In this document: piece by piece, positions 2,708 to 9,408 of the stretch
Position numbering within the stretch: position 1 is the first letter of the stretch
Layout: every line of letters starts with the position of its first letter
From: Bdellovibrionia bacterium
GTDB taxonomy: Bacteria; Bdellovibrionota; UBA1018
Assembly: GCA_045805065.1 (NCBI GenBank)
Contig: JBJMMA010000184.1
Location: forward strand, 1 to 28,269
DNA length: 28,269 nt
Direction of reading: 5' to 3'
Notes under the pieces: generated by a model
Seen by the model: the letters and a program-made list of their open reading frames with translations, nothing else
Database searches by the model: none
What the model was told of the DNA's origin: nothing
Program-made: the position numbers and the translations under genes

Positions 2708-3661
2708 CTAGACTGTTATAGGGCGTAAAAGAATCGTATCTCCTTCTCGTCCCTCTACCTTAGACAGCTCCACGATCTCGCGCCGAGATCCCACGCGAGA
2801 AACCTGAGCAATCCACTGCACCCCGACCGCCATGAGTTCCCGAATAGCAGTCAAGGGAAGGTTCGCCGCCCCCGACAAAAGGCAAAGAAGCTCGATGCGT
2901 CGAAGAGTGTCTCTCGGATGATGGGCGTGAAGCGTGGCAAGCAATCCGCGATGTCCGGTGTTCATGGCTTGAAGCAGATCGAGCACCTCGGGGCCGCGGC
3001 ACTCGCCGAGCACAATTCGATCAGGCCGCATGCGAAGCGCCTGCCTGAGAAGCGATCGGAGTGTGACCTCGCCGTAACCATCCGCATTAGGCGGGCGGCT
3101 GACCAGACTTAAAAAATGTGGGTGGAAGGGTGCAAGCTCCGGCGTATCCTCGAGCGCGATGATTCTTTCGTTCTCAGGGACAAACGATAAAAGATCGGTT
3201 GCAAGCGTTGTCTTTCCTGCGCCGGTTGAGCCCGCGATCAGAATGGATTCGCCCGCACGGCATGCGGTCTTGAGAACTTCGAAATAGTGCGCGCTTTTGG
3301 GAGTCGTCGACCAACGTTCGCCGCTTGCTTGTCGAGGATAGGGAAGGCGTCTCAACGAAACCAGGATGCCTTGGCGTGCCAGAGGAGGAAACGCGACATG
3401 CACACGATGCCCGCTCGGAAGAGTTGCATCAATGAAAGGATGGCGCGCATCCCAGGTTTTTCCCGCTGCAGTGATCTGCTCTAAAACCCACGTGCGCATA
3501 TCCTCTGCGCTCCAGGGCTCAAAAGCCTGCGCCGCAGATAACCGTTCAAGCCCCTGACCGCGGTCTATGAAAACATCGGCAGGGCCATTCAAAAGAAGAT
3601 CCGTGATCTCAGGCGAGTCCATCGCCTTTGAAAGCCAATCGGGAGTCCCAAGTGCACTCAT
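2708..3661 (-). CDS. cpaF: TadA/CpaF pilus assembly ATPase (short form)
   Basis: Walker A GSTGAGKTT, Asp box LEDTPEL, ALRMRPDRIVLGECRGPE, His box NTGH..TLHAH. Start placed at the ATG 3661, which overlaps the cpaC stop (ATGA); the track start is 3676. Confidence 0.9.
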   Translation of the reverse strand: MSALGTPDWLSKAMDSPEITDLLLNGPADVFIDRGQGLERLSAAQAFEPWSAEDMRTWVLEQITAAGKTWDARHPFIDATLPSGHRVHVAFPPLARQGILVSLRRLPYPRQASGERWSTTPKSAHYFEVLKTACRAGESILIAGSTGAGKTTLATDLLSFVPENERIIALEDTPELAPFHPHFLSLVSRPPNADGYGEVTLRSLLRQALRMRPDRIVLGECRGPEVLDLLQAMNTGHRGLLATLHAHHPRDTLRRIELLCLLSGAANLPLTAIRELMAVGVQWIAQVSRVGSRREIVELSKVEGREGDTILLRPITV

Positions 3662-5220
3662 TGAAGCACGTTCCACGGATAATCGTTCGATTGCTGAAGT
3701 GCTCGCTCCTGGTCAGGGTTTGCCGGAGCGCGAGGTGCGGGCATGGGGCCTTTCGGCAGAAGGCGCAGGATTCGCTCCATCGGATTTTTAGGAAGCTCTT
3801 TGGAAGGAACGAGGATGGCGACAAGCTCGGATTTTTCGTTCAGATAATCTTCCGAACCAAAAAGAACTCCCAGGATCGGGATCTCACGCAACATGGGAAG
3901 TCCGCGCGCCTCTTTTCTCATATTCTGTTGGAGCAGTCCGGATAAGAGGAGGGGGCGGCCATATTGGGCGTCGACTTGCGTTTTCATTCGATTGGCTTGG
4001 ATTCCAGGAATTTTTTGAATCGAGATCGTCGGATCCAGATGGCTGACCTCGGTTGCGATATCGAGTCTGACTCGATCGCCCGCGGAGTGCGTGACGTGAA
4101 GGTGCAGCAGGAGACCAAAGTTCTTCCAGGTGACGGACGAAAAGTAAGCCGACTTGCTTTCGATGGGAATTTCGCCACCCGAGAAAAGCTCCGCATCCCC
4201 GGGGGCCCGAACCACAAGTTCAGGATTGGAGAGAATTTTCACCGACCCATCGCCCTCCAGGGCTTGAAGGGTGAGGTCGAGTTGAAGCATGTCCTGGATT
4301 CCGGAAGTCGTGACTCGAAAAGCGGCTTCCTGGTACGGAGGCCATCCCAATCCTAGCGAGCGGAAGCGGGTCTTTTTGAGCTCCAGCAAAAAGACTTTAA
4401 AATGAACCGTCGGTGAAGCATCAGGCAGTGACTCGAGTCCAAACTGGGCGAGGGGGTAAATGGAGTGCACACGCTTTTCGATTTGGGCCCTTTCGCCCGG
4501 GCCATGGATGTCTCCTTGAATCAGCTGAATGCCCAGCTGTTTGTCCTCGCGCACGATCTGAAGTCGCTTGGAATAAGGCGACTTGGAAAGCCATGCCTCA
4601 AGCTGCCCCTGAGCCTGATCTAGGAGGGAATCTGTCGGCTCAGTTTCATCCCGGACTTCCTGAGGAAAGCCTTGGGTCGCTAAAGCCACGCGCTCAGCCT
4701 CCTTCAAGGACTGGATTTCGCCCCGAAGGATGACCCCGGCCGTTGAGTAGTGGATTTCGACCTCCGACAGGAAGCTCAAAGCCTGGGCAAGCTTCGGGGA
4801 GATGGGGTTAGCTGAGGTCTTATCCACACGGATGACTCGGTGTTCGGCTGATCCATCCGTTTTCCAGACCCAGAGATCCGAGGGGCCAGGCTGGACAGCT
4901 TTGATCAGGAGAAGATCATTCTCGGACGAATCTTTGGGGGCTTTTTTAGCCGGAGAGGGGTGGGGGAGGGCCTGCGCCCTCACGGCTGCGTCGCTTAGGG
5001 AAAAGCGGACAAGTCCTGGAATCCTGAGCAGGCGCTGCTCTCCTAATTGAAGATAAAGAGGAGGCTTTTCGGTCTCCGAGGGGGACGCAGAATACCCCGG
5101 AGATGGGCTCGAGAGGAGCCCCAAGGTAAGTAGTGAGCCTAGGGACCATAAGAGTGCGGGAAAGAGAAGCTGGGTTGGATTCATGGCCCGCCTGTAAGGC
5201 AAGGGTTGAGCCATTCGCAT
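3658..5220 (-). CDS. cpaC: RcpA/CpaC-type Tad secretin
   Basis: N-terminal hydrophobic signal; CpaC N-domain (LLLIKAVQPGPSDLWVW); secretin core (VKILSNPELV, FSGGEIPI, GLPMLREIPILGVLFGS, SELVAILVP). Start could be 5214 or 5184. Confidence 0.88.
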   Translation of the reverse strand: MRMAQPLPYRRAMNPTQLLFPALLWSLGSLLTLGLLSSPSPGYSASPSETEKPPLYLQLGEQRLLRIPGLVRFSLSDAAVRAQALPHPSPAKKAPKDSSENDLLLIKAVQPGPSDLWVWKTDGSAEHRVIRVDKTSANPISPKLAQALSFLSEVEIHYSTAGVILRGEIQSLKEAERVALATQGFPQEVRDETEPTDSLLDQAQGQLEAWLSKSPYSKRLQIVREDKQLGIQLIQGDIHGPGERAQIEKRVHSIYPLAQFGLESLPDASPTVHFKVFLLELKKTRFRSLGLGWPPYQEAAFRVTTSGIQDMLQLDLTLQALEGDGSVKILSNPELVVRAPGDAELFSGGEIPIESKSAYFSSVTWKNFGLLLHLHVTHSAGDRVRLDIATEVSHLDPTISIQKIPGIQANRMKTQVDAQYGRPLLLSGLLQQNMRKEARGLPMLREIPILGVLFGSEDYLNEKSELVAILVPSKELPKNPMERILRLLPKGPMPAPRAPANPDQERALQQSNDYPWNVLQ

Positions 5221-5259
5221 GCTGCTCAGTGAGTGAATCTGGGCGAACCTAAAGATGCG

Positions 5260-5288
5260 TTGACAAGCGCCTACCCCAAAGCTACAAG
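5260..5288 (+). promoter_or_regulatory. Putative sigma70 promoter for the small ORF-metK transcript
   Basis: Perfect TTGACA (5260-5265), 17-nt spacer, imperfect -10 TACAAG (5283-5288). Confidence 0.45.
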
Positions 5289-5465
5289 ATTGCTTTTAAT
5301 TCCAAGGCGAAACGTGCGTTTAGGGCAGCCTGCTCTGTGCATGGGTGTTGTTGAGGAGTTCAAAGCTGACAAGCGCTCCTGGCATGAGTTCGAGAGAATT
5401 CAAAAGGTTCAGAAATGAACCGAGCGGGAACGATTTTAGCCGGTTTTAGAGGCTTTTTAAGCCGA

Positions 5466-5480
5466 AATTTTAGTAAAATT
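5466..5480. promoter_or_regulatory. Perfect 7-1-7 palindrome, candidate operator
   Basis: AATTTTA-G-TAAAATT ends 24 nt before the small ORF start and contains a -10-like TAAAAT. Confidence 0.35.
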
Positions 5481-5504
5481 GAGTCATTTTATTAGGAGTA
5501 CTTT

Positions 5505-5630
5505 ATGCCATCTCGTATGATGAAGACCAAAACCGCACGTAAGGTCCGTCAAGCTCGCAAGGGCAAGACCCGCAAGCGTAAGGAACAGAACAAGGGCACC
5601 ACGCCTAAGTTCCCAATCCACATCGACTAA
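5505..5630 (+). CDS. 41-aa Lys/Arg-rich small protein (not in ORF track)
   Basis: AGGAG (5494-5498) 6 nt before [44 protein letters not shown]; codons resemble those of metK (CGT/CGC, AAG, ACC, ATC); ends 32 nt before metK. Confidence 0.85.
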
Positions 5631-5662
5631 GACGTCGTCCATTTTATAAGGAACCGATTCTC

Positions 5663-6829
5663 ATGGCCAATAACTACCTCTTCACTTCTGAGTCCGTTAC
5701 TGAAGGGCATCCAGATAAAATCGCAGACCAGATCTCTGATGCGGTTCTTGATGCTTTGTTGACTCAGGACCCACGTTCCCGCGTTGCATGCGAAACTCTT
5801 GTAACCACGGGCTTGATCGTTGTTGCTGGTGAAGTGACGACGAACGCTCGCGTGGATTACGCAGCGATTGCTCGCGAGACGGTGAAGAAAATTGGCTATG
5901 ACTCTTCTGAGAAGGGTTTTGACTACAAGACCTGCGGCGTGATGGTCACTCTGGATCGCCAGTCTCCAGATATTTCCCAAGGTGTGAGCGTCGGCGAAGG
6001 CCTTCACAACCAGAAGGAGCAGGGCGCAGGAGACCAAGGGATCATGTTCGGCTACGCCGTTCGTGAATCCGAAAACCTCATGCCGCTCACGATGGACCTT
6101 TCTCATAAGCTGTCCATGCGTCTCTCTCAAGTCCGCAAGGACGGAACGCTCCCTTGGTTGCGCCCAGACGGCAAGACCCAGGTGACCGTTGAGTATGAGA
6201 ACGGGATGCCTAAGCGCGTGGACGCAGTTGTCGTCAGCTCTCAGCACGATGAAGACGTCACGCACAAGCAGATCCAAGAAGCTCTGATTGAAGAAGTCGT
6301 GAAGAAGACGATTCCTGCTCAGTATCTCGACAGCAAGACCAAGTTCTACATCAACCCAACCGGCCGTTTCGTTATCGGTGGCCCAATGGGTGACTGTGGT
6401 CTGACCGGTCGTAAGATCATCGTCGACACCTACGGCGGACACGGCGCTCATGGCGGCGGTGCTTTCTCCGGTAAGGATCCATCGAAGGTTGACCGCTCCG
6501 CTTGCTACATGGGTCGCTATGTTGCGAAGAACCTCGTGGCAGCAGGACTTGTGGACAAGTGCTTGGTTCAGCTTGCTTACGCCATCGGCGTGGCTGAGCC
6601 AGTCAGCGTCATGGTCAATGGTTTCGGTACTGAAAAAGTGGATGCGAAGAAGCTTGAAGCTGCAGCTCGTGAAGTGTTCCATCTTCGTCCAGCCGGCATC
6701 ATCGAGTCGCTCAATTTGCTCCGTCCGATCTATTCGAAGACCGCTGCATACGGCCACTTCGGTCGCAACGATCCTGATTTCACTTGGGAACGTACCGATC
6801 AAGTATCTGCCTTGCGTGGCCTAAAATAA
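5663..6829 (+). CDS. metK: S-adenosylmethionine synthetase
   Basis: [55 protein letters not shown]. Confidence 0.99.
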
Positions 6830-6851: not shown

Positions 6852-6888
6852 AAAGGGCACCCTCTAAAAGGGGTGCCCTTTTTATTTT
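6852..6888 (+). terminator. Intrinsic terminator after metK
   Basis: AAAGGGCACCCT-ctaaaa-GGGGTGCCCTTT followed by a T-rich tract. Confidence 0.9.
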
Positions 6889-7162: not shown

Positions 7163-7969
7163 TCAGTTGCTCAGAGCTTTCAAATCCTTTTCACAGTCGT
7201 CATCGAGTGCTGGTACTTGCTCTGACGTGAAGGCTCCAATCTGTGCTCCGGACTCGGCAGCGTGGTTCATCAAACATTTTGGATTGCTGCAGGAGTGATG
7301 AACCAGATCTGCATGCGCTTTCGGATCGTCGTCCGCTGCAACAAGTCCCAGTAGATGTCCAAACTCATGAAGAAGCGTGGCTGTCTCAGCAAATGTTGGA
7401 TGTGCGGGCGCTGGAGAAATAGTTCGGAGCGAGTTCATGAAGATCGCAACCGATTGTGCGCCGTAAGCGCGTCCTAAGACTCGATCTGTTGCTACATCGC
7501 CTGCCAGGTTCTTGTCCAAGACGAGAGCGTAAAGTGCCAGCGTGCCTTTCGTCGTATAATGCCGACGATACCGGGCTTCAATCTGCTTCAAGTCGATGAT
7601 GCTGTAGCCGTCCACGCCTCGGATGTGGGTCGGGGGCGGGATCGGTGCATCGACCACGATCTGAACTCCCCGGGGCTTCTTTGCGTACTTCACAAGAAAT
7701 GCTCTCAGCTCATCCAAAGACTCGGGAGTGGGTGAGAGTCCTGCCACTGCTTGAATCTCAACCACGAGAGCAGGGAAGTGCTTTGCAGTCAGAATCTCGT
7801 CTGCGATCTTTCCTGCAGCAAGAGAAGTATCGTACGCGGGCTCAGTTCCGGGGTGGATGTCATTGCTTGCATCGTTCCCAAAAGGCGTGCACCCGTTCAG
7901 CCCTGCTGTAGCTGCAGAGATTAAGAAGATTGTTAAACAATTGAACAATAGTACGAACTTTGAGCGCAT
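7163..7969 (-). CDS. Zinc metalloprotease lipoprotein (metzincin/archaemetzincin-like)
   Basis: Lipobox-like LNG-C after a hydrophobic leader; HEFGHLLGL; downstream HSCSNPKCLM (Cys pair plus Met-turn). Confidence 0.8.
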   Translation of the reverse strand: MRSKFVLLFNCLTIFLISAATAGLNGCTPFGNDASNDIHPGTEPAYDTSLAAGKIADEILTAKHFPALVVEIQAVAGLSPTPESLDELRAFLVKYAKKPRGVQIVVDAPIPPPTHIRGVDGYSIIDLKQIEARYRRHYTTKGTLALYALVLDKNLAGDVATDRVLGRAYGAQSVAIFMNSLRTISPAPAHPTFAETATLLHEFGHLLGLVAADDDPKAHADLVHHSCSNPKCLMNHAAESGAQIGAFTSEQVPALDDDCEKDLKALSN

Positions 7970-8175: not shown

Positions 8176-8283
8176 TTTTTATGTGACCAGTGTGCAAGAA
8201 GAAGTTGTTCTTGGGCACGAAGGTCACCGCAAAAATATATTCATGACTAAATCCAAGAAGGATTTAAAGAAGGGGGAGCATTG

Positions 8284-9408
8284 ATGCTCGCATTTCGTTC
8301 ACCGTTGGTAGGCGAAAGTCTCGCGATTCAAAATATCTTCAAGACCATCGAGAAGGTCTCTCAGACGGATAGCACCGTTCTGATCACCGGCGAGAGCGGA
8401 ACCGGTAAAGAGCTCGTAGCGCGAGCCATCCATGAGAATTCGCCTCGGGCAACGCGTCCCCTGGTCATCGTCAACTGTGGAGCAATCCCAGCTGAGCTTC
8501 TCGAAGCAGAACTTTTCGGCCACGTGAAAGGTGCTTTCACGGGCGCAACCCAGAACCGCACGGGCCGTTTCGAAATGGCTCATGGCGGAACGATTTTCCT
8601 CGATGAAGTGGGCGAGCTTCCTCTTCATCTTCAAGTGAAGCTCCTTCGCGTTCTTCAGACCCGCCAGTTCGAAGCTGTCGGATCTTCCCGCACGATGGAA
8701 GTCGATGTCCGCATCATCGCTGCGACGAACCGCGATCTCGAAGAAGCTTCCCAAAAGAAGGAATTCCGCGAAGATCTCTACTATCGCTTGAACGTGATTC
8801 CGCTGCGGATTCCATCCTTGCGCGAGCGCAAGAGCGATATTCCACTGCTTGTGAACCACTTCGTGCAACAGTTCAACGAAGTGAGCGGTCACTCGGTTGA
8901 AGCACCAAGCGGCCAGATCATGGATGCTCTGATGTCCTACGATTGGCCAGGTAACGTCCGTGAGCTTGAAAACCTCATGGAGCGCCTGGTGATCCTCAAG
9001 GGCCAAGGCAGCGTGGACCTGGGCGATCTGCCTCACCGTATTTTCCAAAAGTTCGCAGAAACCAACAACGCTGCCGGCGCTGGCGCAATGTCGATGGACG
9101 AGTGGGAGTTCCCACGCATGGTTCTTCCTCAAACCGGCATCGATCTCAAGACGATCGTTGCGGCTTTCGAGAACCATCTCGTCGACCAGGCTCTGGCTCG
9201 CACCAACGGCAACAAGAACCGTGCATCTGAACTCTTGAAGATGAACCGCACGACTCTCGTTGAAAAGCTTCGCAAGCGCGGAATGATCATTCCAGCTGCG
9301 CAGAACGCCCGCGGCGCTGACGATATCGCATTGGACGCTGACATGCTCATGAACGGCAACGGCCGTGGCACTGGCATGGGCGGTCCTGGTCCTGAGCAAT
9401 CGATGTAA
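8284..9408 (+). CDS. Sigma54-dependent enhancer-binding protein lacking an N-terminal sensory domain (FleQ/FlrA-like)
   Basis: GESGTGKE, GAFTGA, FLDEVGE, WPGNVRELEN, Fis-type HTH NKNRASELLKMNRTTLVEKL; SD GGGGGAG upstream. ATG 8284 or TTG 8281. Confidence 0.9.
   Translation: MLAFRSPLVGESLAIQNIFKTIEKVSQTDSTVLITGESGTGKELVARAIHENSPRATRPLVIVNCGAIPAELLEAELFGHVKGAFTGATQNRTGRFEMAHGGTIFLDEVGELPLHLQVKLLRVLQTRQFEAVGSSRTMEVDVRIIAATNRDLEEASQKKEFREDLYYRLNVIPLRIPSLRERKSDIPLLVNHFVQQFNEVSGHSVEAPSGQIMDALMSYDWPGNVRELENLMERLVILKGQGSVDLGDLPHRIFQKFAETNNAAGAGAMSMDEWEFPRMVLPQTGIDLKTIVAAFENHLVDQALARTNGNKNRASELLKMNRTTLVEKLRKRGMIIPAAQNARGADDIALDADMLMNGNGRGTGMGGPGPEQSM

Follow-up and report, generated by a model that had tools for sequence, protein, structure and literature searches.

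An undescribed family of basic mini-proteins in Bdellovibrionota and Myxococcota-labelled genomes and its possible association with the ribosome

Introduction

What does a strongly basic protein of only 41 residues do in a Bdellovibrionia bacterium, where its gene stands directly in front of the S-adenosylmethionine synthetase gene metK? The gene occupies positions 5505..5630 of the forward strand (ATG to TAA, stop included) of contig JBJMMA010000184.1 (assembly GCA_045805065.1), and the whole contig of 28,269 nucleotides is referred to here as the window. A first-pass annotation, made from the letters of the window, had presented it as an overlooked gene for a lineage-specific ribosomal or nucleic-acid-binding protein. 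It pointed to a strong Shine-Dalgarno site, codon usage like that of the neighbouring housekeeping gene, 15 Lys or Arg residues against 2 acidic ones, the C-terminal sequence GTTPKFPIH, and apparent co-transcription with metK, and it saw no likeness to bL34, bL35, bL36 or bS21. The composition was counted as claimed: 9 Lys and 6 Arg make 15 basic residues, and the two acidic residues are E27 and D41.

Several kinds of protein with such properties are known. The lineage-restricted mini ribosomal proteins bS22 and bL37 of mycobacteria and bTHX of Thermus have 24-45 residues, more than one third of them Lys or Arg. They have no hydrophobic core, occur in few phyla, and can easily go unnoticed or without a name. 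RMF, Sra and ArfA are also small, basic, and lineage-restricted, and they act on the ribosome. Hc1 of Chlamydia and the AKP-tailed HU of actinobacteria are histone H1-like or protamine-like DNA binders. Here we describe the conservation, expression signals, relatives, predicted structure, and gene neighbourhoods of the 41-residue protein, and we weigh these possible roles against each other.

Results

The open reading frame (ORF) at 5505..5630 is a genuine gene under strong purifying selection. Of 41 related genomes, 39 gave full-length matches free of stop codons. All 20 loci that were read have ATG as the aligned first codon, and nearly all of them have a GGAG-like site closely upstream. When 20 orthologues were aligned, 24 of the 41 positions were invariant. 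For 39 distinct orthologous nucleotide sequences, the proportion of synonymous differences (pS) was 0.80, which is saturated, and the proportion of nonsynonymous differences (pN) was 0.107, giving a ratio of 0.13 in frame; the two shifted frames of the same sequences gave 2.0 and 2.9. Variable sites at codon positions 1, 2, and 3 numbered 21, 10, and 38 of 39, respectively. Within the order, the median identity to the window was 84% for the small protein and 86% for MetK (38 loci).

The expression signals of the gene are strong. Codon preference was expressed as the mean log2 ratio between the ribosomal-protein cluster and the background of long ORFs. The 41-aa ORF has a value of 0.37 per codon, which is higher than in any of the 19 ORFs of the S10-spc-alpha ribosomal-protein cluster (C261; maximum 0.30), these reference ORFs having been chosen by position and by eye, with bL36 the only one confirmed by family. 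The value also exceeds all 1820 ORFs of at least 300 aa and 5000 random 40-codon windows. By the same measure, metK stands at the 99th percentile, and the secretin gene nearby stands at the 6.5th. A Shine-Dalgarno sequence, AGGAG, was read directly at 5494..5498 (+), 6 nt 5' of the ATG at 5505. Thus the first-pass reading of both the codon usage and the ribosome-binding site holds.

Further upstream, a promoter-like element, TTGACA-N15-GCTACAA, is located at 5260..5287 (+), 245 nt 5' of the ATG. It was not reported by a simple sigma-70 scan of the window. The pattern TTGAC[AT]-N15-17-[GC]TA was found in 24 of 39 distinct orthologue upstream regions, compared with 0.9% of shuffled sequences. 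Genome-wide, the motif has 5 matches in the genome of the window (G000; genomes and loci are designated by G and L numbers) and 7-10 in shuffles. This scarcity suggests that the conservation is that of the gene's own promoter and that there is no regulon. The element is 50-120 nt from the ATG in most relatives. The distance is 245 nt in the window's genus (269 nt in L002) and 187-195 nt in L015 and L034. The longer distance in this genus suggests an extra leader of about 190 nt (window 5288-5504). Judged from its codon usage, Shine-Dalgarno sequence, and promoter-like element, the gene is apparently highly expressed.

Relatives of the protein are widespread and unnamed. A search of 5.8 billion proteins returned 43 relatives, all unnamed or annotated as 'hypothetical protein', and one of them was labelled Bdellovibrionota. 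A profile of 20 orthologues searched against a library of 1.84 billion proteins gave 59 representative clusters. The top cluster (P0044; 6790 aa, 17 matching stretches) is an acidic, Ser-rich, repetitive protein that lacks the motif, and it was rejected as a low-complexity false positive. Ten distant representatives were looked up; none had an informative name, and P0055 was the only one with organism labels, namely '[bacterium]' and 'candidate division CSSED10-310 bacterium'. When fused or longer forms were sought, only P0106 came up, a read-through with the MetK N-domain, and there was no real fusion, a negative that the tool itself rates as weak evidence.

At the level of genomes, 301 members of the window's phylum were searched with an alignment of 47 family members (A2), and 251 of them had a match at E <= 0.01, almost always just one. 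In four large families of this phylum, every genome is a carrier (67/67, 35/35, 18/18, and 14/14). In a second phylum, sampled around a Myxococcales-labelled genome, 88 of 201 genomes match at E <= 0.001. Seventy-five of these 88 matches have E values of about 1e-9 or below, and genomes of 8-9 Mb are among them. Homologues across Bdellovibrionota and Myxococcota, which the first-pass annotation had proposed to look for, are therefore present. The gene is also retained in a reduced genome of the window's phylum (G272, locus L047; 0.9 Mb in 4 contigs, 96% complete). The same genome keeps the T2SSE ATPase gene beside the small gene and all six small ribosomal-protein genes tested.

We also scanned one genome per species with a degenerate DNA pattern for KGTTPxFxIH, which gave at least 120 loci. 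Of the 120 listed, 117 hold a true family member, and L079, L155, and L168 do not. The record titles include Bacteriovoracaceae, Halobacteriovorax marinus, Peredibacter, Bacteriovorax stolpii, and Oligoflexia, as well as several metagenome-assembled genomes (MAGs) named 'Myxococcales', 'Sandaracinaceae', or 'Deltaproteobacteria'.

The residues of the family are fixed in order and spacing. In A2, R12, G20, G31, T33, P34, and F36 are invariant, and M1, S3, R23, K24, and H39 are nearly so. The family consensus is M-[APSVG]-S-x-T-x-x-T-x-x-x-R...G-x-x-R-K...[KN]-G-T-T-P-x-F-x-[IV]-H. The C-terminal GTTPKFPIH is present in the window protein as described at first pass; however, in several families the profile match stops at position 33, and the orthologues read there (L176-L180) end in GTTKSxKxLF. 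Exact-sequence look-up named them as Bdellovibrio bacteriovorus, other Bdellovibrio strains, and Pseudobdellovibrio exovorus, all annotated 'hypothetical protein'. The Bdellovibrio bacteriovorus orthologue is CAE81131.1 / Q6MGZ6 / WP_011166074.1. Since public records call members of the family 'hypothetical protein', they are uncharacterised rather than overlooked, and the earlier word 'overlooked' holds only in part. A tail of the form GTT-K-S-x-K-x-L-F-x-D/E, or a similar one with x-E-L-F, was seen in L176-L180, L049, L055, and L194, which retain the N-terminal 33 residues. C-terminal extensions of 20-60 residues rich in Ala, Lys, and Pro, resembling histone H1, occur in L082 (Peredibacter), L099 (Bacteriovorax stolpii), L077, L145, and L171. 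The related MAGs L148, L060, and L078 likewise have Ala/Lys/Pro extensions at the C-terminus.

We compared the protein with known families. At E <= 10, the window protein has no match in Pfam, and neither it nor eight diverse members has a match in NCBIfam. When the 47 members of A2 were searched against Pfam at E <= 1, only chance rows were obtained, with no bL32, bL33, bL34, bL35, bL36, or bS21. In each of the five genomes checked (G000, G032, G159, G157, and G272), separate genes that score above the curated cut-off encode bL32, bL33, bL34, bL35, bL36, bS21, and bS20. Therefore, the small protein is not a diverged copy of bL32, bL33, bL34, bL35, bL36, or bS21, and the lack of likeness to bL34, bL35, bL36, and bS21 seen by eye is upheld. 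A resemblance to small ribosomal proteins is seen in the basic N-terminus, which is of the MA-x-x-K-x-T/S-x-x-R-R type found in bL32, bS20, bL33-bL36, and bS21. bL32 and bS20 were tried as candidates by profile-profile alignment with hhalign and rejected (A2 against A5 for bL32, probability 0.3%, E 0.23; A2 against A4 for bS20, probability 0.5%, E 0.12).

The family profile gave weak matches of basic stretches to uS19 and uS12 in the Protein Data Bank (PDB) sequence set, the best being an archaeal uS19 at E 0.77. We assumed that this set holds the Thermus and mycobacterial ribosomes. No Pfam, NCBIfam, or PDB match was found to bTHX, bS22, bL37, Sra, RMF, or ArfA, where the presence of a model for each of these families is assumed. 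In the protein Atlas, which compares language-model features, unnamed clusters were found at 0.93-0.96. The nearest named clusters included DUF6800 (0.80, with the window query only), Ribosomal_L32p, and DUF2986, at 0.76-0.81, and are leads only; Ribosomal_L32p was the nearest or second-nearest Pfam-bearing cluster. No paper on this protein was found in the part of the literature available to us. With no literature or database match, the family is, as far as sequence comparison goes, an undescribed family of basic mini-proteins that spans two phyla and is not homologous to known families.

AlphaFold2, run on A2, predicted a helix at residues 4-17, a break at K19-G20-K21, a second helix at 21-30, and an extended tail at 31-41, with a mean pLDDT of 88. 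The predicted helices have almost no hydrophobic residues, which suggests that the hairpin would form only on a partner. The protein is probably disordered alone and would take the form of the helix-Gly-helix hairpin once on nucleic acid. A Foldseek search of the model against the PDB returned a single row with an E value of 9, and a wide VIA-align search gave generic helical hairpins with a best Z of 3.0. A predicted complex with the genome's own DnaN scored 0.22, below a mark of 0.32, in a prediction made without controls, and counts neither for nor against binding.

Downstream of the small gene is metK at 5663..6829 (+), which is matched by PF00438, PF02772, and PF02773. The spacer (5631..5662, +) is 32 nt long and contains the AAGGA ribosome-binding site of metK itself, and a consensus scan gave no terminator-like site between the two genes. 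An intrinsic-terminator-like hairpin (a 12-bp stem, 7 of its pairs GC, and then a T run) is found after metK at 6852..6881 (+). Of 43 loci from the window's order, 42 have metK directly 3' in the same orientation, and the 43rd ends at a contig edge. The same arrangement was found in 3/3 same-class loci and in 0/9 loci of other classes. Among the matches listed, metK adjoins 24 of 79 pattern-derived loci and is absent from the other 55.

RNA-library contigs of a relative about 92-94% identical to the window span the spacer. X2 record 9 corresponds to 5405-6360 and X4 record 25 to 5475-6090, so that they start about 100 nt and 30 nt 5' of the ORF, respectively, and reach into metK. The four runs compared with the window consist of contigs from one root-metagenome RNA-seq study, in which uncovered stretches and depth carry no meaning. 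DNA carry-over is possible and a contig is not one molecule. Twelve RNA runs were matched, each with a small share (at most 0.14). Because the contigs cross the ORF into metK, they fit a bicistronic transcript, and the small gene is probably co-transcribed with metK in the window. Transcription would run from the element at 5260-5287 through both genes and stop at 6852-6881. The co-transcription proposed at first pass is therefore probable for the window, but the linkage exists only in the window's class. An Rfam scan of 5100-5800 revealed no SAM riboswitch, the sole row being a chance snoRNA (E 0.2), and a scan of five other-class loci gave nothing at the gathering threshold.

On the other side of the small gene, and described for context only, is a divergent operon at 2708..5220 (-) with a secretin gene (3658-5220, PF00263) and a TadA/VirB11-type ATPase gene (2708-3676, PF00437), identified from Pfam and NCBIfam rows. 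A T2SSE ATPase gene is on the same side in five other-class loci (L047, L059, L076, L082, and L093), and L076 is the one locus among these in which Pfam revealed a secretin. The ATPase-side gene order is kept although the metK link is confined to the window's class. In Bdellovibrio-named and related genomes, a PorV-like gene is 5' of the small gene in L177, and TonB-like genes are near in L177, L178, and L180.

Elsewhere the neighbours vary. Ribosomal-protein genes form two tight operon-like pairs with the small gene. In G046 (L048, contig C69), the genome's only uL3 gene (rplC; TIGR03625, 263 bits) ends 11 nt 5' of it on the same strand, and efp is convergent. This sole uL3 gene sits outside any S10-type operon. 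In L192, which is Myxococcota-labelled, the small gene ends 8-9 nt 5' of rpsT (bS20) on the same strand. In other Myxococcota-labelled loci, the small gene is directly 5' of holB on the same strand (L181, L182, L225, L228, and L232), convergent with holB (L187, L130, L235, and L260), convergent with tatD (L073, L250, L252, L254, and L255), or convergent with metG (L244 and L263). holB, tatD, and metG are probably one conserved block. A Dam-type methyltransferase gene is near in L181, L182, and L188. Four Myxococcota-labelled loci have the small gene after a CN-hydrolase gene, and in 10 loci of the 'MSDTSKT' subgroup it follows an aminotransferase-IV gene and converges with an MA-peptidase gene. 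In single loci, the small gene lies between sua5 and pheS (L185), after lplA with sua5 convergent (L072), or after a PP-loop ATPase gene (L087, PF01171); truA adjoins it in L184 and is more distant in L119. The neighbours that recur in different lineages include metG, pheS, truA, sua5, the PF01171 PP-loop ATPase gene, efp, and metK. Grouped by eye, there are about 23 distinct contexts, with translation-related genes in about 8 of them and replication in one block.

Two other ORFs of the window were recorded beside these analyses. The 268-aa ORF at 7163-7969 (-) has a lipoprotein-like N-terminus and a metalloprotease-like HEFGHxxG motif, and it has no Pfam or NCBIfam match. The ORF at 8281-9408 (+) resembles, by eye, a sigma-54-dependent transcriptional activator, with GESGTGKE and GAFTGA motifs.

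Discussion

The role that we rank first for the 41-residue protein, at a little short of an even chance, is that of a ribosomal RNA (rRNA) binder in Bdellovibrionota and Myxococcota, either as a ribosomal protein restricted to these lineages or as a factor that joins the ribosome in near-stoichiometric amounts. Five observations place it there. The codon usage of the gene is above that of the ribosomal-protein cluster; it behaves as a core gene and is retained in a reduced genome; its product is conserved about as strongly as MetK; it is tightly paired with rplC and rpsT in two unrelated genomes; and translation-related genes recur among its neighbours. We infer from the composition, the expression signals, the conservation, and the mixed neighbourhoods that the protein binds nucleic acid and that its target is the ribosome; what the helices and the tail would do is proposed from the predicted fold.

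A more specific form of this role can be proposed tentatively. The family would be a new ribosomal protein family of the two phyla, present at about one copy per ribosome, in which a Gly-hinged basic hairpin carries a tail that enters a pocket of the rRNA. The two Arg/Lys helices (4-17 and 21-30), hinged at the invariant G20, would lie along the rRNA backbone, and a specific pocket would receive the invariant tail, G31-T-T33-P34-x-F36-x-x-H39, through stacking or hydrogen bonds. It would have been missed since neither phylum's ribosome has been solved and tryptic proteomics would be blind to such a protein. Our PDB sequence search gave no match to a ribosome structure of either phylum, and none was found in the part of the literature available to us.

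The family is like bTHX, bS22, and bL37 in size, charge, and the lack of a hydrophobic core, and its expression signals are like those of ribosomal-protein genes. It differs from them in having no sequence relationship and in having the GTTPxFxIH tail and two predicted helices hinged at a Gly.

Several observations weigh against a ribosomal role. The distribution of the family is patchy, as three families of the window's phylum have no match to A2 at E <= 0.01 (0/34, 0/3, and 0/4) and 113 of the 201 second-phylum genomes have none at E <= 0.001. The supposedly specific tail is swapped for GTTKSxKxLF in the Bdellovibrio- and Pseudobdellovibrio-named genomes. At E <= 10, the profile matched no chain of a solved ribosome beyond the basic stretches of uS19 and uS12. 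High expression and strong conservation would suit an abundant nucleoid protein equally well, and the Ala/Lys/Pro tails of L082, L099, and L077 are typical of H1-like DNA binders. The same-strand position directly 5' of holB, a replication gene, in the Myxococcota-labelled block also counts against it, and the neighbourhood contexts are soft evidence because they were sorted by eye.

The main rival reading, which we rank second and regard as doubtful, is that the protein is an abundant nucleoid-associated or replisome-linked DNA binder, a protamine- or H1-like mini-protein. Its basic hairpin would coat or bend DNA, and the short hydrophobic motif at its C-terminus would bind a partner, perhaps the beta sliding clamp. 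The composition fits such a protein, with an extreme positive charge and, in the five loci named above, H1-like tails; an HU-like core nucleoid protein would likewise be highly expressed and kept when a genome shrinks. However, the 40-residue core of the family is not of low complexity, its residue order and spacing are fixed across two phyla, and the window's protein has no AKP tail. A constraint like that on MetK is unusual for DNA coaters that act through composition. The positions beside holB, whether on the same strand or convergent, and the nearby Dam-type methyltransferase genes are in favour of a link to DNA, but holB, tatD, and metG form one block in related genomes and therefore count as a single observation. 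The tails xxKFPI and Q/A-K-x-L-F are loosely like the hexapeptide and pentapeptide clamp-binding motifs, yet the invariant G31, T33, P34, and H39 are not required by those motifs and the usual Gln is mostly missing. A search of 10 supplementary files of the nucleoid-proteomics paper PMC10627809, not including files 6, 7, and 9, gave no occurrence of Q6MGZ6; supplementary file 4 is a nucleoid and whole-cell proteomics table of 2,719 rows. A protein so rich in Lys and Arg gives very short tryptic peptides, and trypsin would probably miss it, so this absence is expected and says little.

A role with another intracellular nucleic-acid or protein partner is unlikely, whether as RNA chaperone, as accessory peptide of RNA polymerase, or as a conditional factor of ribosome hibernation or rescue that would resemble RMF, Sra, or ArfA in role and not in ancestry. 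Small, basic, lineage-restricted factors of such kinds exist, and the patchy phyletic pattern and the exchangeable tail would suit one of them better than a structural component. Nevertheless, to judge from its codon usage and its conserved consensus -35 box, the gene seems to be expressed constitutively and at a high level, which is not how stress-induced or back-up factors behave, and Pfam and NCBIfam gave no match to the family at E <= 10. An ArfA-like role is also at odds with the normal stop codon followed by metK, since arfA has a non-stop design. Export as a cationic peptide through the divergent secretin/TadA-type ATPase machinery, for use against prey, is very improbable. The T2SSE ATPase gene is on the 5' side in two classes of Bdellovibrionota, with a secretin in the window and in L076, and both carrier phyla contain predators. 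But the protein has no signal peptide or hydrophobic segment, an antimicrobial peptide would be expected to be far less conserved, the gene order does not persist beyond Bdellovibrionota, and the family is retained in the 0.9-Mb genome. Finally, the gene might be read as a leader peptide or regulatory upstream ORF of metK that senses methionine supply through its Met codons 1, 5, and 6. It precedes metK by 32 nt in the same orientation, no terminator-like site intervenes, the arrangement holds throughout the window's class, and the scan of 5100-5800 gave no SAM riboswitch. Against this, the amino-acid sequence is constrained over its whole length, M5 and M6 are replaced by R, K, T, G, or S in relatives, and the family occurs apart from metK in all nine other-class loci, in 55 of the 79 listed pattern-derived loci, and in all Myxococcota-labelled loci read. 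The leader-peptide reading is thus close to refuted.

Small, basic, lineage-restricted ribosomal or nucleoid proteins are a known kind, and the family itself is undescribed. Its expression signals are at the top of the genome, it is found in hundreds of genomes, and it is kept in one of 0.9 Mb, yet its only annotation is 'hypothetical protein'. If the protein is part of the nucleoid, a very abundant mini-protein would be added to the unusual chromatin of Bdellovibrio-like bacteria, which, according to the parts of PMC10627809 available to us, already includes bacterial histones. If it is ribosomal, as we think most likely, it would be a new entry in the short list of lineage-specific bacterial ribosomal proteins, from two phyla of predatory, developmentally complex bacteria. 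Culturable carriers exist, namely Bdellovibrio bacteriovorus, Halobacteriovorax marinus, Peredibacter, and Bacteriovorax stolpii, and the question is directly testable in them.

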